This document shows, piece after piece, positions 3,144 through 40,210 of a stretch of DNA of 64,000 nucleotides. Numbering within the stretch: position 1 is the first letter of the stretch; every line of letters begins with the position of its first letter. The DNA is from Armatimonadota bacterium. Lineage in GTDB: Bacteria; Vulcanimicrobiota; JACPDS01; JBDRKI01. The position numbers were made by a program, and so were the translations under genes. The notes beneath the pieces were generated by a model. It ran no database searches, had not been told where the DNA came from, and worked only from the letters and a program-made list of their open reading frames with translations. The stretch spans positions 12,342 to 76,341 of the forward strand of contig JBDRKI010000099.1 in the NCBI GenBank assembly GCA_043814095.1, in the 5' to 3' direction.

Positions 3144-4538
3144 TTAATTAAGAACGACGGTATCCCTGTATTCCGGAATATTAACTTCCCATTTATATTT
3201 TTTCTCTATTTTTTCTTTTAAAGATTCTATCGCCTTTTCTTCGCCGTGCACAAGAAAAACCTTTGAAGGGTCGGATTCAAGATTAAAGAGCCAGTATAAT
3301 ATCTCTTCATAATCCGCATGGGCGGAGAAGCCGTTTATGACTTTTATCTTTGCTTCCACCGGGAAAATCCGGCCGAATATCTTTATATTCTTCTCCCCCT
3401 CTAAAATTCTTCTCCCGCGGGTTCCCTCGGCCTGATACCCGCTGAAAAGTATCGTGTTTTTAGGGTCGCTTATGCGGTGAACAAGGTGATGCAGTATCCT
3501 GCCTCCCGTGCACATCCCGTCAGCGGATATAATAATATTCCCCGCGCCTAATTTATTCAGTTTTTTGGACTCTTCGTGCTTTCTCACGTAATGAAGGTTG
3601 TGGCAGAGTATGGGGGACTGCCCTTTATCTTCAAGCTTCTGCGTTTCTATATCATGGTAGTTTTTATACTTTAAAAATATTTTGGTCGCATTAATCGCCA
3701 TGGGAGAATCAATATACACATTTGTCTTTTTGCTGATCCTTCCGGTATCCTGAAGCCTTTTAATATAATAAAGGATGGCCTGGGTCCTGCCCACAGAGAA
3801 CGCGGGTATTAACAGAACGCCTCCGGCCGAGAAGGTATCATTAATGACTTTTTCCAGTTCAAACTCGTTGCTTTCCGAAGAATGAAGCCGGTTCCCGTAA
3901 GTTGATTCCAGAACAAGATAATCCGCTTTATATACCGGTGAGGGATTTTTTAATATAGGCACCTGGTAATGGCCGAGGTCTCCCGAGAAAATAATCCTTC
4001 TTACTTTCCCGTCATATCTTAATATAATCTCAAGTATCGCCGAACCGAGGAGATGCCCGGCATCCAGAAACTTAACCTGTATATTATCGGAAATTTTGTA
4101 TACCTGATTATAATTTCTCGGCACAAAATACTTAAGGGATTCTTCAGCGTCTCTTACGGTATACAGGGGCATGGCAACTTCATATTTTGAAAACCCCTTT
4201 TTGTTGGCGTAAGCGGCGTATTCTTCCTGCAGGTGCGCCGAATCAAGAAGAAGGATCTGACACAGGTCCACAGTGGGCTTTGTCGCCCATATCTGACCCT
4301 TAAATCCTTCTTTTGTGAATTTAGGTATATATCCCGTATGATCTATATGCGCGTGCGTAAGGATGCAGTAATCTATATCTGCGGGGTTAACGGGGAGTTT
4401 TTCCCAGTTCCTGCGCCTTAATTCCCTTAATCCCTGATACAAACCGCAGTCTATCAAAATATTAACACGCCCGTCGGTTAAATAAAACTTGGATCCTGTA
4501 ACTGTTTTGGTAGCGCCTAAAAATTGTAATCTAAACAT
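3144..4538 (-). CDS. MBL-fold metallo-hydrolase with beta-CASP/RNA-specificity domain (RNase J-like ribonuclease family)
   Basis: HAHIDHTG motif (HxHxDH) near the N-terminus. The roughly 460 aa length is typical of beta-CASP RNA-metabolising MBL proteins. Confidence 0.6.
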   Translation of the reverse strand: MFRLQFLGATKTVTGSKFYLTDGRVNILIDCGLYQGLRELRRRNWEKLPVNPADIDYCILTHAHIDHTGYIPKFTKEGFKGQIWATKPTVDLCQILLLDSAHLQEEYAAYANKKGFSKYEVAMPLYTVRDAEESLKYFVPRNYNQVYKISDNIQVKFLDAGHLLGSAILEIILRYDGKVRRIIFSGDLGHYQVPILKNPSPVYKADYLVLESTYGNRLHSSESNEFELEKVINDTFSAGGVLLIPAFSVGRTQAILYYIKRLQDTGRISKKTNVYIDSPMAINATKIFLKYKNYHDIETQKLEDKGQSPILCHNLHYVRKHEESKKLNKLGAGNIIISADGMCTGGRILHHLVHRISDPKNTILFSGYQAEGTRGRRILEGEKNIKIFGRIFPVEAKIKVINGFSAHADYEEILYWLFNLESDPSKVFLVHGEEKAIESLKEKIEKKYKWEVNIPEYRDTVVLN

Positions 4539-5706
4539 TTATCTCCTGAATAACTTTCTGGGCTATTTTTTTTGCCCCGCCCGGCGGGCCCATTCTCTCA
4601 CGCCCTATTTTGGCCATATATTCGTATTTCGCGGGATTTTCTAAAATAGAAATTACTTCACCTGCAATCTTAACCGGATCTTTATCAACAACGCTTAAAG
4701 CGTCCCCTAAAAGCCCTTTTTGGCGAAGCCTGTACCACCCGAGATTGCCGTCCGGCGTCTTTTCGGAAAACGCGACAACGGGTTTTCCCAGCCCTACCGC
4801 CTGTTCGTTCGCCGTGCCGGCCTGGCCCATAATAATATGGGCCCTGGTTATTATATCCCCGAAAATACCCCGTGTAAGATACACTGTGGAATTTCCCTTT
4901 TTCAGCTCCCCGACAATGCCTTTTGTGTAATTTGTCGGAGTAAGCTCCCATCCCAGACTTATAGATGGCGCCACCATATCTCCCATATCAACCGAAGAAG
5001 CAAGCGCCGTGAAGTATTTTACATCCCAGTTAACTTTTTTGCCCAATACTTCAACCGCCTGAAGAATCATTGAAAAATCTTTATACACATCTTCGCGGCT
5101 CCCAGGAAGTATGCCCACGACAACCTGCGGGTACTGTGTTCCCATGTTGCAGTCAACAGGATTTATGCAGTCCATCATGACATTCCCCGCAAAAACCGCG
5201 TTAATGCCGTAATCCCGCAGATCCGAAGCTGTAACCTCATCCCTGGGAAAAACAGTATCGCAGTATTTTTTAAAAAGTTTTTTTTCTTTATCCGAATAAG
5301 GACAGAAATAATTTGATTTTGCCGTCCCCACAAAAATTTGTTTTCTTTTTGTAAAAAAAGAATTTAAAATAACCGGGTAAGAATCACCCACTGACAATGA
5401 AAGATCTGTTTTTGAACGTATTTTTAATATTGAATTTATCTGCCCGAATGTCAAGCCTATAAGCCCGGCTTTTACATCGTTAAAAAGCATCTTTGCGTGA
5501 TTGGAAGGCACTAGCCCCCCGCTCGGCATAAGTTTGGTAGGACCGAGTTTTTTTACATCAACATTATTATAGGCATGCCCCTTGCCCACAAGGGGTAAGG
5601 CATATACGGTAATCCCCTGATCCGCTTTTTTAATCTCTGAAATTACTTGGGCGGCTATCTCGTCTTCGCCGTAGCCGTTGCTTAATACCAAAATATTCTT
5701 ATCCAT
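4531..5706 (-). CDS. Lipid-A-disaccharide synthase-related glycosyltransferase (GT19 family paralog, TIGR03492-like)
   Basis: It shares the LpxB-family ILPGSR motif (VVGILPGSREDV) and has GT-B-like organisation. It is distinct from the canonical lpxB at 8365..9519. Confidence 0.5.
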   Translation of the reverse strand: MDKNILVLSNGYGEDEIAAQVISEIKKADQGITVYALPLVGKGHAYNNVDVKKLGPTKLMPSGGLVPSNHAKMLFNDVKAGLIGLTFGQINSILKIRSKTDLSLSVGDSYPVILNSFFTKRKQIFVGTAKSNYFCPYSDKEKKLFKKYCDTVFPRDEVTASDLRDYGINAVFAGNVMMDCINPVDCNMGTQYPQVVVGILPGSREDVYKDFSMILQAVEVLGKKVNWDVKYFTALASSVDMGDMVAPSISLGWELTPTNYTKGIVGELKKGNSTVYLTRGIFGDIITRAHIIMGQAGTANEQAVGLGKPVVAFSEKTPDGNLGWYRLRQKGLLGDALSVVDKDPVKIAGEVISILENPAKYEYMAKIGRERMGPPGGAKKIAQKVIQEINV

Positions 5707-5715
5707 AAAACACCC

Positions 5716-6480
5716 TTATAATTTTATAAGTTCGGTGGTTTCTATATCAAATTTTTTACTTCCCGGTTCTTTGCCCTTTTCTTTTTTATATACATTTAAA
5801 TTTATCTTTGTTATATACCTTCCGTGGCTGCCGGAATAAAAAATAAAGCTGTTCCCTGCCGCTACCGGCTCTTTTAGCGCTTTATGGTCATGCCCTCCTA
5901 AAAAGATAAGGCTCTCTTGAAGGCTTTCCGCGATCTTTATGCATCTTTCGTATTCAAGATGCATAAGCACGATTATAATGTCTGCTTTATCTTTTATCTC
6001 CTCGATTACATCTTTAAGAGATATTATATAATCCGTAAATTCAAATCCCGATAAGTTTTTCAAAAAAGAGCCCGGACCATACTGCCGGGGGGTTATCCCC
6101 GTTACGGCTATGTTTACCCCGTTTAAGTTCTTAATAATATACCGTTTTATAAGATTTTCATTTTTCAGGTCTTTCAGGTTGGCGGAAACAAAAGGCATTT
6201 CTGTCTGTTTTACCCTGTTTTTAAAAATACTTCTCAGGTAATGAAACTCCCTGTTTCCCACAGCCACCGCATCATAGCCCGCGTCACGCATTTTATCCAG
6301 TATATCTTCTCTTTTTTTAAAAACAGTTGAGCTTCCCCATATCGCGTCTCCGGAATCCAGAAGCAGGCTGTTCTGCCTGTTTATGGGGAGCTGTTCCAGA
6401 TAAGGAAAAACCGCCCTCTCATTATGCAGATCGGTTGTGTGATAAATTAAAATCTTTTCACCTGCCATATCCCGTTCCAT
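5716..6480 (-). CDS. Cytoplasmic calcineurin-like metallophosphoesterase with UshA/5'-nucleotidase N-domain signature motifs. Candidate UDP-2,3-diacylglucosamine pyrophosphatase, i.e. an LpxH/LpxG functional analog.
   Basis: Motifs HTTDLHN, LDSGDAIWGSS, GNREFH and GGHDH match the UshA-type metallophosphatase signature. There is no signal peptide. The gene is embedded between GT19-family genes. Confidence 0.5.
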   Translation of the reverse strand: MERDMAGEKILIYHTTDLHNERAVFPYLEQLPINRQNSLLLDSGDAIWGSSTVFKKREDILDKMRDAGYDAVAVGNREFHYLRSIFKNRVKQTEMPFVSANLKDLKNENLIKRYIIKNLNGVNIAVTGITPRQYGPGSFLKNLSGFEFTDYIISLKDVIEEIKDKADIIIVLMHLEYERCIKIAESLQESLIFLGGHDHKALKEPVAAGNSFIFYSGSHGRYITKINLNVYKKEKGKEPGSKKFDIETTELIKL

Positions 6481-8408
6481 ATCATCCCGACTATTGAGGC
6501 ATCGCGGTTAATCATTAAAGCCATTATGATCATCATAGCGGCGATAATGGCCAGCGTGTGTATCTCAGCCTTAAAAATAACCTGCCAGTTAAAACGTCCC
6601 TGCAGTTCAAAATAAGGGCGCAGCGCGTTAGGTATAATTCTCGGGACCATTTTAGCGTATATAAGGTAGGGTTCCCCGAAGGTTTCGTATAAATATACTT
6701 CTTCCAGAGGAATTATGATGCCGTAAACTACCATATATCCCATAAGAAAGAGCATAAGCACGATAACTCTTTCTACGGACAGCATACCGCCTATGGCCAT
6801 AAAATAAAAGCCAAGGGCTGTTACGCAGTTGCCCAGATACAGGGGATTTTTAATATAGGCGTAGGGGCCCGCCGTAACAAGCTGCGGGGCCATAAGCTCG
6901 CTTTCCCTCGTGGTTGAGCCCGCGTACCCGACACCCCAGATACGCAGAAATTCGCCCCCGAAAACAAAGATAAGTCCGAACAAAAACGAATACAGCGTGG
7001 GACGCGCGATAAAAAGCACAAAAACAGCCAGAGGCGCGAGAATCCAACCGCGCCATCCGAAAACAAACTCCCTGAAAGGCGTGCGTATTTTATGCGCATT
7101 GGCAAATAAATTTACGCTTGAATCAAGCGAACTTAATATAAGTTCGGCTATCTTCGTTGAAGCATCATGCTTGCCTTTAGTCACCTCAATTAATTCGTGG
7201 CTCATTTTTTCCCTTACATCATCATTCTTTAAAAGCTCCGCGGCCACATTCGTAACTTCTTCAGCTTTCTGTTCCACAATAACTTCAGGCACAATTTCTT
7301 TATCGGCAATCTGGTTTGGAAGCGCCGTAAATTTAATTCTCTTTAGTATCCAGTAAAGAAGCTTCTTCCTGAAAAAGGAGCCCATCGGAAGCGAACCCAG
7401 AAAGCCGGTAAGCCCGCCGCGCGGTATTTTCGCGCGCCATGTTGATGAAACAATCATGGGTTTTCCGAGCGCGGCCACTTCAGCGGTATTGGTGCCAGGT
7501 ATGGTAAGCACAAGGTCGGATAAATTAATCACATCATACTGCATGCCCTGGAGCACCCTTACCTTAAGGCCTTTCTCCGTTTTTATAAACAACGAGCCGT
7601 TATTGGTTATAAGCTCGGCTTTTGTGCCCTCCAGCCCGCTGCCGGAAGGAGTAAGGCATTTTTCAAGATCTTTTAAAGATAAAAACGGTGATACGCCGAG
7701 TAAAAACTGTATGTTGCTGAAACGGTCTTTCAGCTCTTCCGCCACTTTTAAATAGTAAGGAAGGCTTTCTTTCACATGATAGAACCTGCTGCCCGGAAGT
7801 ATGCCGACAGTATGAGAAGTCTCTTCTATGCCCCACTGTTTGCTCACAGCCAGCTTATCAAGGGTGGGCTTTGCCTGTTCAACCATTAGATTCCCGACAA
7901 CCACAATCCTGTCTTTTTTAAACCCCAAATCTGCCATCTCCTGGGCTATTGCCTCATCCTGCACGCCGAGGTAATCAAAATATTTATTCCATTTTGACGC
8001 TTTTACCGAATATGCGACCGAAGGATACCTGAGCCTTCTGGAGACTATAAGAGCGTGCCAGAAATCCCCGCCCAGAAAAACCACGCTCCCGAAAGCGGCG
8101 GGAGAATATTTTTTAAGCCTGAAACCGAAAAGAAACTGTACAAACTCTTTAGGATTTATAACAACATCAACACCGTCAATGGCTTTGGCAATTTCTTCTT
8201 CTTTACCGCTCGCGTAAGGACACGGTACAAGCATAACAATTATGCGTATCTCCGGACGACTTAATTTTAACTTTGCAATTGTTATTCTCACCCATGAAGA
8301 AAGCTCTCCCGGACTGTTTGTTATTATAACTATATCTTTTTTCTTATCATCAACTTTAAGCATATTACTCCTCAACTTTATTAATAATATCGCGGATGAG
8401 CCCGGCAA
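6447..8408 (-). CDS. Two-domain fusion protein. N-terminal GT19 (LpxB-like) glycosyltransferase domain; C-terminal polytopic ICMT/PEMT-family methyltransferase domain (LmtA-like).
   Basis: The N-terminal ~430 aa carry ILPGSR (HTVGILPGSRFYHV) and a GT19-like layout. The C-terminal ~220 aa have several TM helices and the ICMT motif region (NPLYLG...EE..L...FGEPY..Y...VPRIIP). Confidence 0.5.
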   Translation of the reverse strand: MPGSSAILLIKLRSNMLKVDDKKKDIVIITNSPGELSSWVRITIAKLKLSRPEIRIIVMLVPCPYASGKEEEIAKAIDGVDVVINPKEFVQFLFGFRLKKYSPAAFGSVVFLGGDFWHALIVSRRLRYPSVAYSVKASKWNKYFDYLGVQDEAIAQEMADLGFKKDRIVVVGNLMVEQAKPTLDKLAVSKQWGIEETSHTVGILPGSRFYHVKESLPYYLKVAEELKDRFSNIQFLLGVSPFLSLKDLEKCLTPSGSGLEGTKAELITNNGSLFIKTEKGLKVRVLQGMQYDVINLSDLVLTIPGTNTAEVAALGKPMIVSSTWRAKIPRGGLTGFLGSLPMGSFFRKKLLYWILKRIKFTALPNQIADKEIVPEVIVEQKAEEVTNVAAELLKNDDVREKMSHELIEVTKGKHDASTKIAELILSSLDSSVNLFANAHKIRTPFREFVFGWRGWILAPLAVFVLFIARPTLYSFLFGLIFVFGGEFLRIWGVGYAGSTTRESELMAPQLVTAGPYAYIKNPLYLGNCVTALGFYFMAIGGMLSVERVIVLMLFLMGYMVVYGIIIPLEEVYLYETFGEPYLIYAKMVPRIIPNALRPYFELQGRFNWQVIFKAEIHTLAIIAAMMIIMALMINRDASIVGMIWNGIWQVKRF

Positions 8409-9519
8409 CTTTATTAATTACGCCGCCGGATTCAAAATTTTCTTTAATTCTTCGTAAATCGCAGAGCATATCCCTTCTGGCGGGACTTTCTTTAATAAGC
8501 TCGCGCGCAAGCACGCTTATCCTGCGCGGACTTATGTCTTTTTGAATAAATTCAGGAACGACTTCTTTTCCCAGAATAATATTAGGCAGAGAAATATGCT
8601 TAAGGTACGGGAATAATATCTTTGCCGCCGTATAATCAAACCAGTTTAACCTGTATAAGACTATCATGGGGGTTAAAAAATACGCGGCCTCAAGAGTCGC
8701 TGTCCCGCTTGAAGTTATAATAAGATCGGATGCCTGCATTACATCATAAGCGGACCGGGTAACCCGTACAGGAAAGCCTGTCTTTGCCCTTGTTAAGTAA
8801 TCCCTTATAATCTTCTCTATATGGGGCGATGAAGCCGGTATCATAAAGAAGGTCTCCGGGTCTTTCTCGTGAATCAGCATGGAAGTCTCTATCATACTGC
8901 CCAGAAGGAGCCTGACTTCATGAGCCCTGCTGCCGGGAAGAAGCCCTATAACCTTATCTTCTTTTATCCTGTACTCTTTTTTTATGCTGTGTTTATCCCT
9001 GCGCGCATCCTCTATTGCGTCAACTATTGGGTGGCCGAAATAATAAACTTTTTTTCCTGCTTTTTCATACATATTTTTAGTATGTTCAAAAACAGGTACG
9101 ACATAATCAAAGAACCGGGCGTAACGGCGGGTTTTATCAAGATTTTCTTTCCTCCATGCGGAAGGCGGAAAATAATACATCATCTTGATGTTGTGTTTTT
9201 TAACATACTCCGCTATGCGCACATTTATTGCGGGCGAATCTATTAAAATCAAAAGATCGGGCTTGAATTTCACTATATCTTTTTTAAGCTTATCCACCTT
9301 AAACCACAGGTAGGGAACTTTCTTAACGGCTTCCCATATGCCTATAACTCCCCATGAAGAAGTATCCGTAAAATGTTCAAGCTCCTCGGATTTTAAACTG
9401 TGTCCGCCGGCTCCAAGAAACACAATATTATTATCCATCTGCTTCAGTTTCTTTACCAGTAATGAAGAATGCAGATCTCCAGAGGATTCAAACGAAGTTA
9501 TGGCTATTTTTTTGTTCAT
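8365..9519 (-). CDS. lpxB: Lipid-A-disaccharide synthase
   Basis: 384 aa. The N-terminus SFESSGDLHSSLL parallels the LpxB motif AGEVSGDxLGA, and the LLPGSRxxEV motif is present. It sits immediately downstream of lpxA. Confidence 0.8.
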   Translation of the reverse strand: MNKKIAITSFESSGDLHSSLLVKKLKQMDNNIVFLGAGGHSLKSEELEHFTDTSSWGVIGIWEAVKKVPYLWFKVDKLKKDIVKFKPDLLILIDSPAINVRIAEYVKKHNIKMMYYFPPSAWRKENLDKTRRYARFFDYVVPVFEHTKNMYEKAGKKVYYFGHPIVDAIEDARRDKHSIKKEYRIKEDKVIGLLPGSRAHEVRLLLGSMIETSMLIHEKDPETFFMIPASSPHIEKIIRDYLTRAKTGFPVRVTRSAYDVMQASDLIITSSGTATLEAAYFLTPMIVLYRLNWFDYTAAKILFPYLKHISLPNIILGKEVVPEFIQKDISPRRISVLARELIKESPARRDMLCDLRRIKENFESGGVINKVAGLIRDIINKVEE

Positions 9520-9586: not shown

Positions 9587-10369
9587 TTATTTTCCGACTA
9601 TTCCCAGCCTTGACGGATTATTTAAAAAATCTACCAAATGGCGGACTTCTTTGTCTGAATTAAGATTGCTGTTAATTTCATCAACAGCCTGACCTATATT
9701 GAGTTTGGAATCCATAATATATTTGTACGCTTTTTTAAGCTCTTTTCTTCCTTTTTCGTCAATGCCTTTACGCGCCAATCCCCTGTAGTTTATACCGTAA
9801 AGTTTGATAGGCTGGCCGTCAGCGATTGAAAAAGGAGGCACGTCTTTTACTACCTTGGAAAAACCGCCTACCATTGCCATCTTGCCTATTTTGGCAAACT
9901 GGTGGATACCCGTCATACCGCCTATAACGGCATGATCTTCCACTTCAACATGACCGGAAAGCCCTGTTGAATTGGCGATTACTATGCCGCTGCCGAGCAC
10001 GCAGTTGTGTGCCACGTGCACAAAAGCCATAAGCATATTATCGTTTCCGATAACTGTCTTTCCGCCTTCGTCCGCGGCCCTGTGAACGGTTATGAATTCG
10101 CGCAGTATATTATTGTCGCCTATCTCAACATAGCTTTCAAAATCCTTGTATTTTAAATCCTGGGGGGGAGCGCCTATAACGGATGAGACCCCTATCTTGT
10201 TGTTACTGCCTATTTTAGTCCATCCCTCTATAACACAGTGAGAAGCTATTTTGGTATTATCGCCTATTATGACATTTTTCCCGATTATGGAATAAGGGCC
10301 TACCTCTACTCCCTTGCCTAATTTGGCCCCTTGATCAATGATAGCCGTAGGGTGTATCACTTGCTTCAC
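9587..10369 (-). CDS. lpxA: Acyl-ACP:UDP-N-acetylglucosamine O-acyltransferase
   Basis: 260 aa with left-handed beta-helix hexapeptide repeats. The N-terminus IHPTAIIDQGAKLGKGVEVGPYSIIG is typical of LpxA. Confidence 0.85.
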   Translation of the reverse strand: MKQVIHPTAIIDQGAKLGKGVEVGPYSIIGKNVIIGDNTKIASHCVIEGWTKIGSNNKIGVSSVIGAPPQDLKYKDFESYVEIGDNNILREFITVHRAADEGGKTVIGNDNMLMAFVHVAHNCVLGSGIVIANSTGLSGHVEVEDHAVIGGMTGIHQFAKIGKMAMVGGFSKVVKDVPPFSIADGQPIKLYGINYRGLARKGIDEKGRKELKKAYKYIMDSKLNIGQAVDEINSNLNSDKEVRHLVDFLNNPSRLGIVGK

Positions 10370-10370
10370 C

Positions 10371-11354
10371 TCAATTTTTTGTCATGGCCAGATATTCTTC
10401 AGCAAGCTCTCTGTTGCGTTTTACCGTTTTCATGGAGCTTACAATCTGCATGGCCAGCTCCAGCGCGCGTTTGCCGTCTTCCCCCGAAACCATGGGGGTT
10501 TTATGCTGTGACACGCATTCTATGAAATGAGCCAGCTCCAGGCGCAGAGGTTCGTCTTTCTCAACATATATATGCTCAAATGTATTGGGTTTGCCGTTCA
10601 TGGGCGGTTTCATTAAAGTTACCGCCTGGTTTATAAAATCAAGAAGCAGGGTCCTGCCGTTCTCAATAACCTTCATCTGCCTTAGCTTCTCACCGCTTAC
10701 CCTGGAGGATAAAAGCTGGGCGACACAGCCGTTTTTAAATGTGATCTTCACTATCGCCAGATCCTCAAAATCAGAGTATACGGATATCCCTGTTGCCTGA
10801 ATCTCCTTAATATCCGATTTAACAATATTAAGAAGTATATCAAGATCATGAACCATTAAATCCCAGACAATGCCCACGTCTAAATTCCTGTTTGTGGGGA
10901 AAGACATTCTCTGGGCTTCAATAAATAAAGGTTCGTTTATAAGTTTTTTAAACATCAGCATCGCGGGATTAAACCTCTCCAGGTGGCCTACCTGCAGAAT
11001 CATGTCTTTGCCGTTTGCCATATCTATTAATTCTTTGGCCTGACTCAAATCGGTTGTTATAGGTTTTTCAATCATTACATGTATATTTCTGCTTAAAAAA
11101 TCTTTGGCAATCTGATGGTGAAGATTTGTCGGAACTGCAATATTGACGGCGTCTACTTTTGCAAAAAGATCCTTATAATCAACGTAATAATCGGTCTGCA
11201 GCTTTCTCGCGACTCCTTCGCCGAGATCTTTCTGAATATCAACAAGGCCGGTCAGCTCAACATTTTCCATTTCCGAATATATTCTGGCGTGGTGCCTGCC
11301 CATGTTGCCTACACCTATAACACCAACTCTGATTTTATTACTCAAAGCGTTCAC
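10371..11354 (-). CDS. Gfo/Idh/MocA family NAD(P)-dependent oxidoreductase, GnnA-like candidate (UDP-GlcNAc 3-dehydrogenase)
   Basis: Rossmann N-terminus IRVGVIGVGNMGRHHARIY. The gene sits inside the lpx operon between lpxC-fabZ and lpxA. Confidence 0.55.
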   Translation of the reverse strand: MNALSNKIRVGVIGVGNMGRHHARIYSEMENVELTGLVDIQKDLGEGVARKLQTDYYVDYKDLFAKVDAVNIAVPTNLHHQIAKDFLSRNIHVMIEKPITTDLSQAKELIDMANGKDMILQVGHLERFNPAMLMFKKLINEPLFIEAQRMSFPTNRNLDVGIVWDLMVHDLDILLNIVKSDIKEIQATGISVYSDFEDLAIVKITFKNGCVAQLLSSRVSGEKLRQMKVIENGRTLLLDFINQAVTLMKPPMNGKPNTFEHIYVEKDEPLRLELAHFIECVSQHKTPMVSGEDGKRALELAMQIVSSMKTVKRNRELAEEYLAMTKN

Positions 11355-12749: not shown

Positions 12750-13784
12750 TTATTTTGCCTTATTTTCAAGTTCTTCTATTCTTTTATTAAAACTTTCAAT
12801 GGTTTTAGAGAGGGATGTCATATATGACTGCATTTTTAATTCTTCCCTGTGGCTCTTTGCGGGGAAACCGCTTACCATGCTTTTGGGTTTTATCTCTTTT
12901 GTAACACCGGCGCGTCCGAGCACCATTGTGTCATGCCCTATCTTCACGTGATCGGATACCCCCACCTGGGCCGCCAGTATAACCCGGTCTCCGACTTTGG
13001 AAGATCCTGCTACACCGGTCATGGCAACGATTATACAATCTTCACCTATCTCAACATTATGTGCTATATGAACAAGGTTGTCTATCTTAGTGCCCCTGCC
13101 TATCCTGGTAGCGCCTGTTGTGGCTCTGTCCACGCAGGTATTTGAACCGATCTCCGCCTCATCTCCTATATGCACGGTGCCGAGCTGGGGTATCTTAAAA
13201 TTCTTAGCGCCTTCCTTAACATAGCCGAAGCCTTCGGAACCTATTACCGCGCCGCTGTATATGATCACACTGCGCCCCATAAAAACCCTGTCAAATATGA
13301 CAGCATTGGGATAGATTACCGTTCCTGCGCCTATTTCAGCGCCTTCACCTATATAAACACCGGCATGAATCTGAACATTATCACCGATAACGGCGCCCTT
13401 ATTAATCACCGCGTTCGGACCCACGGCAACATCTTTGCCGAGCCGCGCTTCAGGGTCTATAACCGCCTTCTCGTGTATGCCGTTAAGAGGCGTTTTTACT
13501 TCAAACAAACCCAAAACTTTCGCAAACGCAAGCTTTGGATCGCCGGCAACAAGAAGGGTCTTGCCCCTAATGTCAGTATATTTAATTTTATTGCTCGCGA
13601 TAATAACGCCTGCCGTGGAGTTTAAGGCCTTCTCAAAATTTCTCGTATCCGCCGCCCAGATGATGGAACTCGGACCGGAAATTTCCACATCATCGCCTTT
13701 TAATTCGGCTTTTATTTCCCGCGCTATTTCGCTTGCTTTAAAAGACATTTCAATACCTTTACTGCAGTTTATTTTTAATTTCAT
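12750..13784 (-). CDS. lpxD: UDP-3-O-acylglucosamine N-acyltransferase
   Basis: 344 aa with beta-helix hexapeptide repeats. It occupies the lpxD position between skp and fabZ. Confidence 0.8.
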   Translation of the reverse strand: MKLKINCSKGIEMSFKASEIAREIKAELKGDDVEISGPSSIIWAADTRNFEKALNSTAGVIIASNKIKYTDIRGKTLLVAGDPKLAFAKVLGLFEVKTPLNGIHEKAVIDPEARLGKDVAVGPNAVINKGAVIGDNVQIHAGVYIGEGAEIGAGTVIYPNAVIFDRVFMGRSVIIYSGAVIGSEGFGYVKEGAKNFKIPQLGTVHIGDEAEIGSNTCVDRATTGATRIGRGTKIDNLVHIAHNVEIGEDCIIVAMTGVAGSSKVGDRVILAAQVGVSDHVKIGHDTMVLGRAGVTKEIKPKSMVSGFPAKSHREELKMQSYMTSLSKTIESFNKRIEELENKAK

Positions 13785-14166
13785 CGGTTATATCTATTCC
13801 GCCGTATTCCACGGCAAAATCCACCACTACAATATTCAGTTTCTTTTTCTTCGCGATTTGCGCAACCACTTCTTCAAGCTTTTCATCAAGAGCGTTGCCT
13901 TTTTCCTTCCATTTTTCGTTCATCTGCTCAATAACCGCCTTTTGTTTGTCCGTTATCTTAGACGGGTCTTTGGGCAGTTTGCCGAGCAGAAGATCGCTCT
14001 CAACCTGGTACTCGCTCATCAAGTCCCTGTATTCCGCCCAGTTGGCAAGAAGCTTATACCTGTTAATAATGCCTGTTTTTAAATTTGCCGGCTTACACCC
14101 GGTGACAGAAATAATAATCCCCATACATATAAACAACACTGCCGCGACTATAACTATTTTTTTCAT
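13759..14166 (-). CDS. Small OmpH/Skp family periplasmic chaperone-like lipoprotein
   Basis: Signal peptide with a lipobox-like Cys (VTGCKP). The C-terminal OmpH-like segment is KKLNIVVVDFAVEYGGIDITDEIKNKL. Confidence 0.5.
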   Translation of the reverse strand: MKKIVIVAAVLFICMGIIISVTGCKPANLKTGIINRYKLLANWAEYRDLMSEYQVESDLLLGKLPKDPSKITDKQKAVIEQMNEKWKEKGNALDEKLEEVVAQIAKKKKLNIVVVDFAVEYGGIDITDEIKNKLQ

Positions 14167-14175
14167 ACGTCCTCC

Positions 14176-15489
14176 TTATTCCATTTCCATAACCTGTTTG
14201 GTCAGATCAACAGCATCTATATCCAGAATATATTCTCCTACAACATAAGATATATTCTCCGGTATTGCGGCTTTTCCGACCTTCTGGCTTATACTGCTTA
14301 TAATCTCGTCGTAAAGACGGTCCCTCTGCTCTTCAAGTATTTCAATCTGTTTTTCCAGTTCTTTCCTTCTTTCGTCAGAAAGCTTGTCCAGAGATTCTTT
14401 TTTATCCATGGCCTTTTCTACAAGCTCTTTTTCCTGCTTTTCAAGCTTTTTCTGCAGTTCAATCCTTTTGTCCTCAAACTGTTTCTCATATTTAGCGGAA
14501 AGCTCTTCAACCTGTTTCTGGTACGCTACTCTTTTTTCTTCCAGTTTCTGCTTGGCATATTTATACTGGGGTGATGAGAGTTCTTTCTTGCTGGAATATT
14601 TCTCATAAAGCCCTTTTCCTTTTATCTGGGCCATAACGTCTTTTTCAAGATCCTCGTTATACCGGGCAACTTCCCGCTCTATTTCATTAACTCTTTTCAG
14701 CTTATATTCTTCAAACTTTTTATCAAGCTGGAGCTGTTTAATTTCCGCAAGGTGCGATTCTCTCGCGTTCAGAGCTTTAAGCTGATTGATCACTTCTTCC
14801 CTTTCCTCGGGCGTTACAGCGTTGTCGCGTTTAAAAACCAGGTTGATTTTTTCATTCTGATTTTTAAGCTGTATTTCCCTCTCGTAAGCGGAAAGTTCCT
14901 GGCGCTGTTTCTCTTTAATACCCCTTAGCTCCTCAGTTAATTTTTTCTGCAGTTCAAGGCGCTTTGCCGCAACCTGTTTTTCCTTAAACGCAATTAAGTC
15001 CTTGACAAACTGGTCCAGGCTCTGCTGGAGCGTCTGGGATGTAACTTTTTTGGGCGGGGCCAGAAGTTCTTCGGGGCTCGGTCCCTGCGATTGAAGTATT
15101 TTTATCTGCTCAACTATCTGGTTTTTTTCTGCTTCCATCTGCGAACCAAGCTCGGCCTGTTCTTTCTGCAGTCTCTTCTGTATCTGGAGCAGCTCTTCAC
15201 CGAGCTGCTGGGCCGCCTGCTGCTGCTTTTTCTCCATCATAACGGCCACGCTCTTTAAGGGGTCAAGCTCCATATCCAGCTGTTCCTGCAGGCCCATAAG
15301 CTGTTCGTTAAGCTTTACAAGCTTATCATAATCAGGATGGGCTTCTATAAGCTTATCCAGTTCAACCACGCCGAATTTACCGTAAGGCATATCCGCGCTG
15401 TTAACGGGGGTTTTAAATATGAAGAAACTGGCGGCAAATACAATGCCGACAAGCACCGTTACTGTTATCGCATATTTTAAAAATCTCAT
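14176..15489 (-). CDS. OmpH/Skp family protein with a roughly 300 aa Lys/Glu/Gln-rich coiled-coil insertion
   Basis: N-terminal TM/signal. The sequence starts and ends like OmpH (GVVELDKLIEAHPDY ... ISYVVGEYILDIDAVDLTKQVM) and has a long heptad-like charged repeat region between. Confidence 0.55.
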   Translation of the reverse strand: MRFLKYAITVTVLVGIVFAASFFIFKTPVNSADMPYGKFGVVELDKLIEAHPDYDKLVKLNEQLMGLQEQLDMELDPLKSVAVMMEKKQQQAAQQLGEELLQIQKRLQKEQAELGSQMEAEKNQIVEQIKILQSQGPSPEELLAPPKKVTSQTLQQSLDQFVKDLIAFKEKQVAAKRLELQKKLTEELRGIKEKQRQELSAYEREIQLKNQNEKINLVFKRDNAVTPEEREEVINQLKALNARESHLAEIKQLQLDKKFEEYKLKRVNEIEREVARYNEDLEKDVMAQIKGKGLYEKYSSKKELSSPQYKYAKQKLEEKRVAYQKQVEELSAKYEKQFEDKRIELQKKLEKQEKELVEKAMDKKESLDKLSDERRKELEKQIEILEEQRDRLYDEIISSISQKVGKAAIPENISYVVGEYILDIDAVDLTKQVMEME

Positions 15490-15518: not shown

Positions 15519-16343
15519 TTATTTCTCGGTCTGGGCCCTGAATTCCTTAACTACTTCTTCGGTCACATTGACGCCGCCGAACATTATGCTGTTCTTGCTT
15601 AAAATAAGGCTTAATCCCTTATTTTTTGATATCTGCTCAACGACTTTGATAACGGTATCGTTTACTGGAGAATATATTTCCGCTCTTTTCTTGTAAAAAT
15701 CCATCTCATACTGCCTTGTAAGTTTTTCCCTTTCCTTGCTTCCAAGCTTCTTGATCTGCGCTTCAATCTGGCCCTGCAGGCCTTTATAGTAAGCGGCAAG
15801 CTTCTCGTCCGCGTCACGGAACGCTTTTAACCTTCTTATAACTTCCTGATCAAAATATCCCACGGGTGAATTAAATTTCGCAGGAAGAGAGCTTAATTTT
15901 AATTCTTTCTCGCTGCCGACCATTTTAATAACATCATCTGTTATGTCTTTAATCCCGTAAACGGATATCTTTTTGTCAACGACCACGCTCATACCGCTCT
16001 TGCCTGCCACGACTTCTATCGCGGCCTCAACTCTTTCTTTCAGCGGATTTAAAAGAACTGCTCTTTTCTGCTCAAGCTGCTGCTGGTATGTTATAAGGAG
16101 CTCGCTCTGCTTGGCTTTTGACAGGTCTTTTGCTTTTTTGTTGTACAGATCGTAAACTTCTTTAGCGAAAGTTTCATACTGTTTTAACGCGCCGGCAAAT
16201 TTTTCAGACGCGAATATTTTATCCTGATCAACACAGCCCACCTGTGCCGCCGGATTTGATAAGCTTCCTATAAGAAACTTCACACCGAAAATAATACCTA
16301 CAATTACCAGAACTATTACTGCTGCAGTAATAAACTTTTTCAT
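15519..16343 (-). CDS. skp: Tandem-domain OmpH/Skp periplasmic chaperone
   Basis: Signal/TM anchor followed by two successive OmpH-like units. Each ends in (V/I)DxT(D/E)EV(I/V)K-type motifs (DITDDVIKMV; VNVTEEVVKEF). The gene is immediately downstream of bamA. Confidence 0.6.
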   Translation of the reverse strand: MKKFITAAVIVLVIVGIIFGVKFLIGSLSNPAAQVGCVDQDKIFASEKFAGALKQYETFAKEVYDLYNKKAKDLSKAKQSELLITYQQQLEQKRAVLLNPLKERVEAAIEVVAGKSGMSVVVDKKISVYGIKDITDDVIKMVGSEKELKLSSLPAKFNSPVGYFDQEVIRRLKAFRDADEKLAAYYKGLQGQIEAQIKKLGSKEREKLTRQYEMDFYKKRAEIYSPVNDTVIKVVEQISKNKGLSLILSKNSIMFGGVNVTEEVVKEFRAQTEK

Positions 16344-16365: not shown

Positions 16366-18495
16366 CTAAAACGACTGTCCCATGCCGATTGAGAACCTGC
16401 CTTTACCGCCGCCCCTTACGGCATAGTCTATCCTTATAACGCCTACTGCCAGGCCGATCTTCTGGAAGACAAGCCTTAAACCAACGCCTACGTCCTTGCG
16501 CAGGGTTGAATCCTGTCCCGGCGACCATGCGTTGCCCGCATCGGCAAAAACCGCGGCCTTTAAAAGATCTATCTTGCCCACTGGGAACCTGTACTCGGCG
16601 TTCGCAAGAAGCATCCTTGAGCCGAATATTGAGTTATCCTCGTAAGCTCTTAAAGTATCAACACCGCCTATGTAAAAATACTCCATTGCCGGGGGTATTC
16701 CCGATATCGCCCCTCCCCACAACCTTAAAGCTATGCTTCTTTCTTTTTTAAGTGGGAAATATCTTCTTATTTCGGCCTGATACTTGCTGAAGTTATAAGA
16801 ACCCTTTAGTGAATTTCCGGCCACCATGCCGGATGTATTTATATAATAACCCTTATAGGGATTAAATACGTCATCTCTTGTGTCATATATGCCGGTAAGG
16901 GATACCGCGTTTAAAGAACCGCTGCCCATGGCTATCGGCGTATATTCCGACGCCGCGCTTTTGTTCATAGCTATGGTTTCCCTTCTTAATCCTATAATGC
17001 CGCGAAGGTCAAGACCCAGCCATCTTCCGTAAGAGACTGTGCCGCCTCCCCTGTGATCGTCATAATAGGAGTACAGGACAGGTTCGGTATCGTATATGGG
17101 CTGTCTCAGTTCCCTGTAAGTACTGTTGAAAACCGAGAAACCTATCTGATCGGCGCGCTTGTTAATCGCCGGCGAATAATAAGATACTGCCCATGAATCT
17201 ATATTGAAGCCCCTCTGCCAGCTTGTTGATATACTCTGGCCGTTTCCTCCCAGATTCCTCATATTGGCGGTAACCCCGCCCGTTAAGCCGCTTCTGGATG
17301 TCGCGCTAACGCCGCCGCCGCCGTAGCCCACGCCGAAGGTAAAGAAGTTATACTTCTTTGGCTCTTTAACTTTCCATATGACTATATATTTGTCGGGAGC
17401 CGAACCCTGCTCTGTTTCTATCTCTATATTGTCAAAAAGCTGCAGGTCCTGGAGATGCCTGTGATCTCTCATTATGCTTTCACTGCGCAGGAACATTCCC
17501 TGCTTCATCTTTAATATGCGCATAATGAAATATGTTTTGGTTTTTACATTGCCGGTTACTTCCACTTTTTCAACGGTAACTTCCGCAACATCAATATTTA
17601 CAATCCCCTTGTCATAATCTATCTGCGGCTGCTGTATGTTGGCAAAATAGTCTTTCTCTTTGTAAAAATCTAAAAGATTCGTAAGATCTTTTGATAGAAC
17701 TTTTTTATTAAAAAGCTCCCCTGGCTTTAAATTTATTATCTTTTTCAGCTTTTCTTCGGAATAGGTTTTATTGCCGGTTATGTTTACTTCCGTTATCATC
17801 ATCGCTTCTCTTATGTCTATCTTTATCTCGCCTTCAGGGGTCCATATTATATCCTTAATATGGTTCGGGAGCCAGTAGCCGAGATCTTCATTATAATAAT
17901 TTCTTATCACCGCAAGGTCGCCGCTTAAAACTTTATTGTTAAGAATCTTACCGATCTTGGTTTCCATAAGAGCCAGAAGTTTATCAGTAGTAACTATTTT
18001 ATTACCGGTTATTTCTATCTCTTTAACTATCGGATTTTCCAGAACCGTGAATACCACCTTTACGCCGTCGTCAAAAGGAACTTCCGAGTAATTTACGTCG
18101 GAGAAGTATCCCATATCCAGGATGGCGCGCCTGTCCCTTATAAGTTTGGGCTCTAGAACAGGATCGCCCGTTTTGGTTATTAAAACATTTTTTATTTCAT
18201 CTGCGGGAATTGCATTATTTCCCTCTATAACAACCGCGGTTACAAGTTTAGGTTTCTCGCTTACCACATCTTCCGGAAGAGGAAGCCCCTCATAAGGGAT
18301 CTCTTCTACGGTTTCTTCTTTATCGGTATCTTCCATGGATGCGGGAAGCTCTTCTTCCGTATGCACCGGCTGGGGAACGGCAGGCTTTTTGTCCTTGTTA
18401 TCCTCGGCCAAAACAGCGCTTGTTATTAACGCGATAACAGCCAGAAGAAGTATCAATATAATTATTTTTGATCTGCCGTATAATAATTTATTCAT
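16366..18495 (-). CDS. bamA: Outer membrane protein assembly factor BamA
   Basis: 709 aa with signal peptide, POTRA-like repeats and a C-terminal beta-barrel ending GQSF. It sits in the conserved position upstream of skp-lpxD. Confidence 0.85.
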   Translation of the reverse strand: MNKLLYGRSKIIILILLLAVIALITSAVLAEDNKDKKPAVPQPVHTEEELPASMEDTDKEETVEEIPYEGLPLPEDVVSEKPKLVTAVVIEGNNAIPADEIKNVLITKTGDPVLEPKLIRDRRAILDMGYFSDVNYSEVPFDDGVKVVFTVLENPIVKEIEITGNKIVTTDKLLALMETKIGKILNNKVLSGDLAVIRNYYNEDLGYWLPNHIKDIIWTPEGEIKIDIREAMMITEVNITGNKTYSEEKLKKIINLKPGELFNKKVLSKDLTNLLDFYKEKDYFANIQQPQIDYDKGIVNIDVAEVTVEKVEVTGNVKTKTYFIMRILKMKQGMFLRSESIMRDHRHLQDLQLFDNIEIETEQGSAPDKYIVIWKVKEPKKYNFFTFGVGYGGGGVSATSRSGLTGGVTANMRNLGGNGQSISTSWQRGFNIDSWAVSYYSPAINKRADQIGFSVFNSTYRELRQPIYDTEPVLYSYYDDHRGGGTVSYGRWLGLDLRGIIGLRRETIAMNKSAASEYTPIAMGSGSLNAVSLTGIYDTRDDVFNPYKGYYINTSGMVAGNSLKGSYNFSKYQAEIRRYFPLKKERSIALRLWGGAISGIPPAMEYFYIGGVDTLRAYEDNSIFGSRMLLANAEYRFPVGKIDLLKAAVFADAGNAWSPGQDSTLRKDVGVGLRLVFQKIGLAVGVIRIDYAVRGGGKGRFSIGMGQSF

Positions 18496-24538: not shown

Positions 24539-25438
24539 CTAATGCTTTATAAAAGAACTCAATAAAATAAAAAGAAACAACAGCATAATACTCCAAAACT
24601 GCCATAGGCCGAATAAGCTTTTTATATTGCCCCAAAATCCTTTAAACCTAACCGTGTCTACCTCGGCATTGGGGGTTTCTTTTATTAACAATTTAAACAA
24701 TAATATTATCAATATAATTGATAGTATTATTAAAACGGGGGGAAGATGGTATTTAGTATATGCGCTAAATTTATAGGTGTAAAAATAAGCAAATAATATA
24801 GCTGTGGCATTAAAAGTTCCGTGGGCTAACATGCTCGAAAAAATTGAGCCTGTCCTATAGACCAAATAACCCAAGACCAAACTCACAAAAATAGAAGATA
24901 TAATATGTGAGATGCAGTTCATGTGTAGGGCACCAAAAAGAAACGAAGCGATAACAATCGCTTGAATAAAGCCAAATTTTTTAAAAGCATTCAAAAGATA
25001 GCCTCTAAAATAAAATTCTTCGTATAATGGAGCGATAATTACCATTAAAAAGATAAATAAATAAGAATCTAAATTATTATTTGATTTGGGATAGGGATCA
25101 GCAATAATAACGACTGAAGCGCAGAAAGATTTAATTAAATAATATAAGTAAGTGCCTGTGAAAAAACTAATAACACCGATTAGAATTGATAAAATTACTA
25201 TTCGGTAATTTATTTTTTTAATACTAAAAGCATTTATAATATTAAGCTTTTGCTTTTTTGCCGCTATGAGAAGTATTAAAATAAGAAATATATTGTTAAT
25301 AACATCACTAAAATATTTAAACCCAAACAAATTTTTGTTAATACTGTATAGTACTCCCCCTAAAATAAGCATAATCAAAAATAAATTTAATGCGTTTCTT
25401 ACCGAAGAATGCCTAATCTCTTGAATATCATTTTGCAT
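24539..25438 (-). CDS. CPBP family intramembrane glutamic endopeptidase (CAAX protease/Abi family)
   Basis: Polytopic membrane protein with the EExxxR motif (EEFYFRGYL) and a FxxxH motif (LFGALH). The gene is very AT-rich compared with its flanks. Confidence 0.7.
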   Translation of the reverse strand: MQNDIQEIRHSSVRNALNLFLIMLILGGVLYSINKNLFGFKYFSDVINNIFLILILLIAAKKQKLNIINAFSIKKINYRIVILSILIGVISFFTGTYLYYLIKSFCASVVIIADPYPKSNNNLDSYLFIFLMVIIAPLYEEFYFRGYLLNAFKKFGFIQAIVIASFLFGALHMNCISHIISSIFVSLVLGYLVYRTGSIFSSMLAHGTFNATAILFAYFYTYKFSAYTKYHLPPVLIILSIILIILLFKLLIKETPNAEVDTVRFKGFWGNIKSLFGLWQFWSIMLLFLFILLSSFIKH

Positions 25439-35015: not shown

Positions 35016-35297
35016 TTAACTTTTCAGGAACGGCTTTATTAATTTAAATGCCGCATACGCGCCTATAAGTATTCCCATGATAACAAAAAGAGGAAAATAA
35101 AGATCGTTCCCTGTTTTGTCCGAGATATAGTTGCCTGCCAGTATTCCGAATACTATGCAAATGACCATCGTAAAACCCAGCGACATACCCAGGTTAAGAC
35201 TGCTGGCAAATGCTTTGTTGTACTTTTTGTCTTCCGGCCCTCTTGCCTCTTCAATTTTTTCTTTCAGGAGTTCCGGCGTTATTTTTTCTTTGTTCAT
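35016..35297 (-). CDS. AtpZ/AtpI family small membrane protein (putative F0F1-ATPase-associated subunit)
   Basis: 93 aa with two TM helices. It is the first gene of the atp operon. Confidence 0.45.
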   Translation of the reverse strand: MNKEKITPELLKEKIEEARGPEDKKYNKAFASSLNLGMSLGFTMVICIVFGILAGNYISDKTGNDLYFPLFVIMGILIGAYAAFKLIKPFLKS

Positions 35298-39427: not shown

Positions 39428-39440
39428 CCCTTCATTATGT

Positions 39441-40187: not shown

Positions 40188-40210
40188 AACCCTTTACCTT
40201 AATTTATTAT

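Follow-up and report, generated by a model that had tools for sequence, protein, structure and literature searches.

Two divergent LpxB-type paralogs beside canonical LpxB in an outer-membrane and lipid A operon: candidates for lipid-A-proximal glycosyltransferases

Lipid A synthesis is textbook biochemistry that was worked out in Proteobacteria. Here we describe an operon with three LpxB-type genes, found in a 64,000-nt stretch of contig JBDRKI010000099.1 from an Armatimonadota bacterium (assembly GCA_043814095.1), and refer to this whole stretch as the window. The three open reading frames (ORFs) lie on the minus strand at 8365-9519, 6447-8408 and 4531-5706, just as the first-pass annotation of the window had placed them. 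They encode the canonical LpxB, a fusion protein whose N-terminal part is a divergent domain resembling glycosyltransferase family 19 (GT19), here named GT19b, and a member of the NCBIfam family TIGR03492. The three proteins are not recent copies of one gene but represent three ancient paralogous families with separate jobs, and we lean slightly towards the view that both extra paralogs are lipid-A-proximal glycosyltransferases that would act after LpxB.

The LpxB protein matches the Pfam family LpxB (PF02684) with 251.9 bits, its score on TIGR00215 (210.8 bits) exceeds the equivalog cutoff of 190.25, and it clusters with the LpxB proteins of E. coli and Anoxybacter in 100 out of 100 bootstraps of a neighbor-joining (NJ) tree. 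A look-up of exactly this protein sequence gave no record. In E. coli, LpxB is an obligate dimer whose subunits exchange their C-terminal parts, so that the active sites are composite (PMC5785501). The active-site residues listed for it by Bohl et al. (PMC5785501; E. coli structures 5W8S and 5W8X), i.e. E15, S17, D98, P198-R201, T277, E281 and N316, are all kept in the window's protein and across 37 LpxBs of the lineage, as are in the window's protein the motifs E-x-SGD, the catalytic D, PGSR, SGTATLE and LPN..VPE. Judged by its sequence it is a bona fide LpxB, i.e. an ortholog of lipid-A-disaccharide synthase, which is also how it had first been annotated.

The earlier description of the middle ORF as GT19-like holds for its N-terminal ~429 residues, but not for the C-terminal ~210 residues, which form a membrane methyltransferase domain. 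The start also has to be corrected. The listed start at 8408 would overlap lpxB by 44 nt, whereas the likely start is the ATG at 8363, 1 nt past the lpxB stop and preceded by a GAGGAG Shine-Dalgarno sequence 5 nt upstream; the NCBI product in the source metagenome-assembled genome (MAG; 'Armatimonadota bacterium' ABIH00_09300) is likewise 638 residues long. On Pfam LpxB, GT19b reaches 54.8 bits against a gathering score of 22.6, but on the LpxB equivalog model TIGR00215 it reaches only 53.6 bits (cutoff 190.25). The Pfam match places it in the GT19 superfamily; an LpxB ortholog it is not, and no model has been built for it. Its AlphaFold2 (AF2) model (pLDDT 92.6) has a GT-B fold, and LpxB (5w8s) comes fourth among the Foldseek matches. 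The family is characterized by the motifs TNSPGE, LVPCPYASG, FLGGDxWHA, PGSR, IPGTNTAE and LPN..VPE. At the N-terminus an invariant N-S-P-G-E stands in place of the E15/S17 motif of LpxB, and the columns of the hydrophobic membrane patch of LpxB (66-76) are gapped, as far as the alignment can tell, in 50-51 of the 51 members. With the single GT19b domain as query, a set of 1.84 billion yielded 234 representatives (50%-identity clusters) at E <= 1e-30; the family is of modest size, but it is a real one.

The fused methyltransferase domain has about five hydrophobic segments in a hydropathy scan, and the motifs GPY..NPxYxG and EE..FG..Y are visible in its translation. It belongs to the ICMT/PEMT superfamily, with 26.0 bits on Pfam PEMT (cutoff 25), 22.4 bits on ICMT (just below the cutoff of 24) and a match to the ICMT structure 4a2n in the PDB at E 1.4e-3. 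Its score on the LmtA model TIGR04571 is 47.4 bits, far below the cutoff of 325. LmtA is the ICMT/Ste14-like O-methyltransferase of the lipid A 1-phosphate. The methyltransferase is present in 42 related loci, mostly as a standalone gene just downstream of GT19b (one protein cluster, c5, in 39 loci), and the fused form occurs in the window and in at least 13 other clusters. Since these independent clusters have the same architecture, we rejected the idea that the fusion arose from a frameshift or an assembly error.

The third protein matches TIGR03492 with 298.8 bits (cutoff 219.2) over model positions 1-395 of 396. It has no match to any Pfam family at E <= 0.01 and scores 31.8 bits on TIGR00215 against a cutoff of 190; its homology to LpxB is visible only by profile-profile comparison. 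The AF2 model (pLDDT 94.5) has a GT-B fold. SNGxGED, VGD, PGSR and GTANEQ are invariant in the family, and the LPN segment is missing. Members are also found in oxygenic cyanobacteria, namely Leptolyngbya sp. O-77, Pseudanabaena, Trichormus azollae, Cuspidothrix and a Synechocystis sp. MAG. In the cyanobacterial loci (L136, L139, L142-L147, L150-L156, L158, L161) the lpx genes are not adjacent, and in two of them (L136 and L144) the TIGR03492 gene, which lies beside a two-component system, and a BamA-like gene are divergently oriented. Our literature search found no paper on TIGR03492, on 'lipid-A-disaccharide synthase-related' proteins or on these paralogs. What is new for this family is its tight pairing or fusion with a UshA-like phosphoesterase, its fusion to LpxK and its neighbourhood of Lpt, MsbA and WaaL genes.

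In pairwise BLASTP comparisons the three proteins share only 20-25% identity. Profile-profile comparison of the family alignments with hhalign, in which all three alignments are full length, nevertheless links LpxB to GT19b with a probability of 100% (E 2e-40, 356 columns), LpxB to TIGR03492 with 99.6% (E 3e-24) and GT19b to TIGR03492 with 99.8% (E 1e-27). The hidden Markov model (HMM) searches and hhalign give one GT19-type superfamily, not unrelated glycosyltransferase families, which bears out the first-pass annotation on this point. The ILPGSR motif that it ascribed to all three proteins is present in the two extra paralogs, and LpxB reads LLPGSR instead. In an NJ analysis of 126 sequences (capped distances, 100 bootstraps) each of LpxB, GT19b and TIGR03492 forms a clade of its own in all 100 replicates. 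A recent lineage-specific duplication of lpxB was rejected: the clades are deep, and all three are common to Firmicutes-like and Spirochaetota-labelled genomes.

The catalytic residues were mapped on 38 LpxB sequences (37 drawn from related loci and the window together, with the E. coli protein added as reference), 51 GT19b and 37 TIGR03492 sequences. R201 of the PGSR motif is invariant in LpxB; an arginine is found here in 36 out of 37 TIGR03492 proteins, and GT19b has arginine in 37 and lysine in 14 of its 51 members. T277 is retained in all three families. E281 is retained in GT19b, and the invariant GTANEQ of TIGR03492 carries the glutamate one position earlier. An acidic residue is found at or next to the position of the catalytic base D98 (GGD/E in GT19b, VGD in TIGR03492), and GT19b retains the LPN...VPE segment, which is swapped between the subunits of the LpxB dimer. 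The N-terminal motif on the acceptor side, on the other hand, differs between the families, i.e. E-x-S-G-D in LpxB, N-S-P-G-E in GT19b and S-N-G-x-G-E-D in TIGR03492. Given the conserved base, the conserved nucleotide-binding residues and the changed N-terminal motifs, both paralogs appear to be active nucleotide-sugar enzymes whose acceptor sites have changed.

The first-pass annotation had regarded the triple arrangement as exceptional, and this view has to be given up. The GT19b profile, run against one genome for each GTDB species, gave 80 loci, in which the cassette was checked by tblastn with the window proteins. Of these 80 loci, 35 have the full set of three GT19-type genes; if the count is limited to loci with 5 kb or more on either side, the figure is 23 out of 42. 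The triple is ordinary for the lineage. The source labels of the 80 loci comprise Eremiobacterota/Vulcanimicrobiota/Xenobia, UBP9, Ca. Bruticola, Sericytochromatia, Tanganyikabacteria and Margulisbacteria, with a few Spirochaetota or Halanaerobiales MAGs; Eremiobacterota, Vulcanimicrobiota and Xenobia labels predominate across the related loci. The recurrent cassette reads GnnA-LpxA-LpxB-GT19b-methyltransferase-(gap)-MPE-TIGR03492, where MPE stands for a metallophosphoesterase. All three genes are also found in a cultured organism, Anoxybacter fermentans DY22613, in the order LpxC-FabZ-LpxA-LpxI-LpxB-GT19b-GT2-MsbA-TIGR03492-GalU-like-...-LptB-LptFG.

Gene fusions connect both paralogs to known lipid A enzymes. 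LpxB::GT19b fusions of 805-830 residues occur in 12 genome loci and several protein clusters, and one cluster (P0345) has a GT2::GT19b fusion. TIGR03492 is fused to MPE in two clusters (P0197, P0235) and to LpxK in a 708-residue protein of the loci L131 and L132 (8984-11110, plus strand), whose residues 5-336 match Pfam LpxK with 271.6 bits. Next after this gene come genes for a KdsB-like cytidylyltransferase and a WaaL-TPR protein, and the same locus has LpxI-LpxB-GT19b-MsbA-AsnB. The idea that TIGR03492 replaces LpxK was rejected in view of the fusion to LpxK. Some unfused TIGR03492 proteins (P0160, P0170) carry the JGI label 'tetraacyldisaccharide 4'-kinase', which is probably due to the LpxK::TIGR03492 fusion.

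The neighbourhoods point in the same direction. In 80 metagenome loci read for this purpose, TIGR03492 has as neighbours an MsbA-like ABC exporter (30 loci), GT2 (20 loci) and MPE (16 loci, immediately upstream in the gene maps), besides GT4, WaaL/Wzy_C-type ligases and LptC/LptA/LptB/LptFG; in the Anoxybacter-type cluster it lies between lptC and lptA. GT19b heads a module GT19b-MsbA-GT2-Rce1-like-GT4 in Sericytochromatia, and in Marinamargulisbacteria it comes after a GDP-mannose pyrophosphorylase-type gene (ManC). Both paralogs are also found at a distance from lpx genes, namely in Sericytochromatia, Margulisbacteria and cyanobacteria. Within 10 kb, neither a WaaA nor an LpxH homolog turned up in any of 163 loci or in the window, although this is a weak negative, as the phmmer searches used E. 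coli queries and are of limited sensitivity.

The MPE gene, which in the window lies between the two extra paralogs and was passed over in the first-pass annotation, deserves separate attention. The family profile, compared with all PDB sequences, matches the N-terminal domains of UshA/5'-nucleotidases at E 1e-29 and gives no match to LpxH at E <= 10, although LpxH structures were included; phmmer with E. coli LpxH, a search of limited sensitivity, gave no match to MPE either. The five metal-binding motifs (DxH, GD, GN, H, GHxH) are kept. The third one reads GNRE in 55 out of 55 members (GNRE[FL] is invariant) as opposed to GNHE in the UshA family, which means that the catalytic histidine of GNHE is absent, as are a match to the C-terminal, substrate-binding 5_nucleotid_C domain and a hydrophobic N-terminus or signal peptide. 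The window has another UshA-type 5'-nucleotidase, which has the C-terminal 5_nucleotid_C domain, a hydrophobic N-terminus (apparently a signal peptide) and GNHE. MPE is predicted to be a cytoplasmic, single-domain metallophosphoesterase of the UshA/5'-nucleotidase type, not an LpxH.

UshA cleaves UDP-sugars to UMP and sugar-1-phosphate, and LpxH carries out the same reaction on UDP-2,3-diacylglucosamine. Among 161 loci with labelled matches MPE is present in 55 and LpxI in 8, and the two never occur together. UshA-type chemistry, the GNRE motif and the lack of co-occurrence with LpxI make MPE a good candidate for a further, independently recruited UDP-2,3-diacylglucosamine pyrophosphatase. LpxH itself has been noted for the same His-to-Arg change (PMC3087551). 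Our search of the literature found no report specific to a further UDP-diacylglucosamine hydrolase or to the lipopolysaccharide (LPS) of Eremiobacterota. MPE and TIGR03492 occur together in 36 loci, and the gene maps show them side by side, also in those cases in which the pair is inverted. A compact cluster, LpxA-LpxB-MPE-TIGR03492-WaaL-LptC-LptB-LptFG, is found in three loci (L129, L130, L160), and this cluster type suggests that the MPE-TIGR03492 pair ancestrally followed lpxB and that GT19b and the methyltransferase were inserted later.

The operon is tightly packed, with every gene from 23960 down to 3144 on the minus strand (Table 1). A scan for promoters and terminators inside it gave no signal above the shuffled expectation. 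The closest GT19b relatives of the window come from MAGs labelled Armatimonadota/Armatimonadetes or Bacillota, and the operon, TamB-BamA-Skp-LpxD-LpxC/FabZ-GnnA-LpxA-LpxB-[GT19b::methyltransferase]-MPE-TIGR03492, is the standard outer-membrane and lipid A operon of that group. The GnnA-like gene keeps its position in relatives, often beside a DegT aminotransferase; no DegT/GnnB-type aminotransferase was found among the window ORFs searched, and in relatives it adjoins the GnnA-like gene (L006:6430-7563, L051). A GnnA-like oxidoreductase inside an lpx operon suggests a lipid A that contains 2,3-diamino-2,3-dideoxyglucose (GlcN3N).

Table 1. Genes and domains of the operon and further features of the window
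Feature	Position	Strand	Remarks
TamB-like protein	18633-23960	-	from size and position only; not run through family search
BamA-like protein	16366-18495	-	similarity to the BamA-position gene of related loci; not run through family search
Three Skp/OmpH-like genes	15519-16343, 14176-15489, 13759-14166	-	only 13759-14166 searched: OmpH 27.9 bits, below cutoff 32.4
lpxD	12750-13784	-	TIGR01853 324 bits (cutoff 242.5)
lpxC-fabZ fusion, 421 aa	11447-12712	-	Pfam LpxC 308.6, FabA 118.1, NF009667 458.9 bits
GnnA-like Gfo/Idh/MocA oxidoreductase (UDP-GlcNAc 3-dehydrogenase-like)	10371-11354	-	NF040723 271.7 bits (below cutoff 450); Pfam GFO_IDH_MocA match
lpxA	9587-10369	-	TIGR01852 318.6 bits (cutoff 231)
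lpxB, 384 aa	8365-9519	-	TIGR00215 210.8 bits (cutoff 190.25)
GT19b::methyltransferase	6447-8363 (ORF-list start 8408)	-	638 aa from likely start; 653 aa as listed
GT19b domain	7077-8363	-	N-terminal ~429 aa of the 638-aa fusion protein
Membrane methyltransferase domain (PEMT/ICMT/LmtA-like)	6447-7076	-	C-terminal ~210 residues of the 638-aa protein
MPE, metallophosphoesterase, 254 aa	5716-6480	-	between the two extra paralogs; Pfam Metallophos 25.7 bits
TIGR03492 protein, 391 aa	4531-5706	-	TIGR03492 298.8 bits (cutoff 219.2)
beta-CASP/MBL nuclease	3144-4538	-	8-nt overlap with TIGR03492 stop
PIG-L family protein (GlcNAc-PI de-N-acetylase-like), 467 aa	478-1881	+	
Rce1-like (CPBP/CAAX-protease family) membrane protein	24539-25438	-	after TamB-like gene
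UDP-GlcNAc 2-epimerase	35294-36436		near Mla operon
GT4 MraY/WecA-like transferase	36446-37432		near Mla operon
MlaD/MlaF/MlaE-type lipid transport operon	38003-40981	-	beside GGDEF protein
UshA-type 5'-nucleotidase	50969-52519	-	

A few further features of the window and of related loci may be mentioned here. LpxC and FabZ are separate adjacent genes in most related loci and a single protein in the window, where the fused gene directly follows lpxD. In about 31 related loci a conserved protein of ~600 residues without a Pfam match is found between lpxD and lpxC (L006:3379-5169; L120:576-2384; clusters c8/c33), and it is absent in the window. At the other end of the operon the beta-CASP nuclease gene looks co-transcribed because it overlaps the TIGR03492 stop by 8 nt. 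The best NCBIfam match of this nuclease is the type VII CRISPR Cas14 model with 420 bits, well below the cutoff of 800, followed by aCPSF1 with 313 bits. The PIG-L gene lies just downstream, past the nuclease and ackA genes, and its product has a hydrophobic N-terminal stretch (possibly a transmembrane helix) and an extra C-terminal region of ~230 residues. The Mla operon and the GT4 transferase and UDP-GlcNAc 2-epimerase near it add to the envelope genes of the window. An Rce1-like protein, which follows the TamB-like gene in the window, comes directly after TIGR03492 in many Eremiobacterota-type loci (L027:14177-14962; L120:10639-11931; L045, cluster c13) and after GT2 in the GT19b modules of Sericytochromatia. 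Two families of 'CAAX-processing' enzymes, i.e. the Rce1-like proteins and the ICMT-like methyltransferases, thus recur in these LPS clusters.

How could the three paralogs work together? LpxB, as its orthology implies, would make the tetra-acyl disaccharide, and MPE would most likely supply lipid X by cleaving UDP-2,3-diacylglucosamine, in place of LpxH, LpxI or LpxG. We place both extra paralogs on lipid A precursors because the proteins to which they are fused work on such precursors at the inner membrane's cytoplasmic face. GT19b and TIGR03492 would be nucleotide-sugar-dependent GT-B transferases working at this face, and the fusions and neighbourhoods suggest that they act after LpxB, around the LpxK step and before flipping by MsbA. 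For a relative of LpxB the simplest chemistry would be to transfer a sugar onto a hydroxyl group that an acylated glucosamine carries. WaaA/KdtA is the 3-deoxy-D-manno-octulosonate (Kdo) transferase, i.e. it transfers the first sugar onto lipid IVA, and the lipid-A-proximal addition proposed here might be a WaaA-like first-core step or a decoration of the backbone. The fused ICMT/LmtA-like domain may anchor GT19b in the membrane, and, going by its superfamily, the methyltransferase probably acts on a lipid A phosphate or a sugar carboxylate. The first-pass annotation had suggested additional glycosyl transfers on lipid A or its precursors; in view of the retained catalytic motifs and the fusions to LpxB, LpxK, GT2 and an LmtA-like methyltransferase, this is a reasonable reading.

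Several observations weigh against this scheme. In L132 both paralogs are accompanied by LpxK and a KdsB-like gene, so TIGR03492 is not restricted to LPS free of Kdo or of phosphate. The neighbouring nucleotidyltransferases do not point to any one donor sugar, as they differ between lineages: GalU-like in Anoxybacter, ManC in Marinamargulisbacteria and KdsB-like in L132. MPE pairs with TIGR03492, to which it is sometimes fused, and not with LpxB, which is unexpected for a pure LpxH analog. For the TIGR03492 model, Foldseek puts UDP-GlcNAc 2-epimerases above glycosyltransferases. Finally, the absence of WaaA, LpxK and LpxH was checked only within 10 kb of the loci, with E. coli sequences as the WaaA and LpxH queries.

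A bolder version may still be formulated. TIGR03492, together with GT19b where present, might be a Kdo-transferase-independent linker of the first core sugar in Terrabacterial diderms including cyanobacteria, and MPE might be a fourth class of UDP-2,3-diacylglucosamine pyrophosphatase. LpxH, LpxK and WaaA are reported to be missing from cyanobacteria and several further phyla; of the pathway, cyanobacteria are reported to have only LpxA/C/D/B, and their LPS to be free of Kdo, heptose and phosphate (PMC3087551). Negativicutes and Halanaerobiales carry lpxK/waaA/kds in their clusters (PMC5007114), and in Anoxybacter-type clusters this place is occupied by GT19b, GT2 and TIGR03492. We regard this version as doubtful, but if it were true, TIGR03492, GT19b and the GNRE-type phosphoesterase would define an alternative late Raetz pathway.

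Other roles for the paralogs have to be considered. GT19b might be mainly a structural or co-catalytic partner of LpxB that forms a C-terminally swapped heterodimer with it, or a pseudo-dimer when fused, and so tunes or anchors disaccharide synthesis instead of carrying out a glycosyl transfer of its own. The obligate swapped dimer of E. coli (PMC5785501) would be in line with such a role, and so would the LPN and VPE motifs of the swapped segment that GT19b keeps, its location immediately 3' of lpxB with translational coupling, the fusion to LpxB in 12 genome loci, and the lack of the hydrophobic membrane patch (by alignment) in a protein that is fused to a membrane protein in the window. However, nearly all GT19b members keep PGSR, T..E and the acidic base residue, which speaks for catalysis, GT19b is also fused to GT2, and in Sericytochromatia, Margulisbacteria and Tanganyikabacteria it is found without lpxB within 10 kb, beside MsbA, GT2, GT4 or ManC, so we think a partner role unlikely. 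We find it quite unlikely that the extra paralogs are alternative disaccharide synthases for another backbone sugar (GlcN3N versus glucosamine, or hybrid) or acylation state, even though the GnnA-like dehydrogenase of the operon and the DegT aminotransferase of its relatives make GlcN3N-type precursors likely. For Leptospira, whose lipid A is of the GlcN3N type and which has LmtA, the genes lpxB1 and lpxB2 have been reported (PMC4758666); they are the only LpxB paralogs we found mentioned in the literature. Yet the Anoxybacter-type clusters have the three paralogs and no GnnA, the acceptor motifs E15 and S17 of LpxB are replaced in both paralogs, the families are mutually as distant as unrelated GT-B families (~20-25% identity), and cyanobacterial TIGR03492 lies away from the lpx genes. 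Such synthases would be the divergent route to the disaccharide that was raised in the first annotation. Against this route also stand the canonical LpxB encoded alongside and the occurrence of both paralogs far from lpx genes.

TIGR03492 alone could be a UDP-sugar-modifying or hydrolysing, epimerase-like enzyme and no transferase, which would supply or recycle a nucleotide sugar jointly with the UshA-like phosphoesterase. The top Foldseek matches are indeed non-hydrolysing UDP-GlcNAc 2-epimerases (E ~1e-14, TM-score ~0.6), there are weak Epimerase_2/WecB HMM matches, and TIGR03492 is fused or adjacent to the UDP-sugar-hydrolase-type MPE. But by sequence profile LpxB is its closest match by a wide margin (E 3e-24), LpxB itself has weak Epimerase_2 matches, and the leaving-group arginine of PGSR and the acidic base residue are invariant. 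The low structural score of LpxB can be ascribed to the domain-swapped state of its crystal chain, with a root-mean-square deviation of ~21 A even for GT19b. An epimerase-like function is, in our opinion, very unlikely. There is similarly little chance that both paralogs act on some other glycoconjugate, such as a glycolipid, a capsule or a cell-wall polymer, and that their location in lpx operons is a historical accident. Such an assumption could draw on the many Sericytochromatia and Margulisbacteria loci and the cyanobacterial ones in which lpx genes are not adjacent, and on neighbouring GT2, GT4 and Wzy_C genes, which are also typical of polysaccharide loci. It has to contend with independent fusions to four lipid A enzymes or enzyme types (LpxB, LpxK, an LmtA-like methyltransferase, and MPE within lpx operons), with repeated insertion between lptC and lptA or beside msbA, and with the fact that every labelled source organism belongs to a diderm lineage.

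Two conserved LpxB-superfamily enzymes and a distinct phosphoesterase, distributed over ~160 related loci, are concrete candidates for the missing late steps of lipid A synthesis. The fusions to known lipid A enzymes in different lineages, in phyla that include cyanobacteria, make the question experimentally approachable. Cultured carriers exist, e.g. Anoxybacter fermentans and sequenced cyanobacteria such as Leptolyngbya sp. O-77 and Pseudanabaena. The analysis also corrects current annotation, since GT19b proteins are now called 'lipid-A-disaccharide synthase' or 'hypothetical', and some TIGR03492 proteins are mislabelled as 'tetraacyldisaccharide 4'-kinase'.

It is worthwhile to compare these proteins with known systems. 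The three proteins of the window are full-length homologs of LpxB (CAZy GT19) and share with it the GT-B fold, PGSR, the T...E ribose motif and the acidic base position. The two extra paralogs differ in that GT19b lacks the hydrophobic patch (by alignment) and TIGR03492 lacks LPN, and both score far below the equivalog cutoff and form clades of their own. The NCBIfam family TIGR03492 ('lipid-A-disaccharide synthase-related protein', a hypothetical equivalog), of which the window's third ORF is a member, has no assigned function. The methyltransferase domain resembles LmtA of Leptospira interrogans (TIGR04571) inasmuch as it is a multi-helix protein of the ICMT/PEMT superfamily encoded in a lipid A operon, with LmtA as its best NCBIfam match, but it is not an LmtA ortholog (47 versus 325 bits), and it is fused to a GT19-like domain. 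MPE takes the operon position of LpxH, LpxI and LpxG, is a calcineurin-type metallophosphoesterase like LpxH and LpxG, and has the GNR(D/E) motif like LpxH; in contrast to these, it comes from the UshA/5'-nucleotidase N-domain family, although without the C-terminal domain, and adjoins TIGR03492. WaaA/KdtA (GT30), finally, is a cytoplasmic-face GT-B enzyme that acts after LpxB/LpxK and before MsbA. The role proposed for GT19b and TIGR03492 would be analogous to it, an analogy drawn from gene context, although both are GT19-type proteins that are not homologous to WaaA at the family level.

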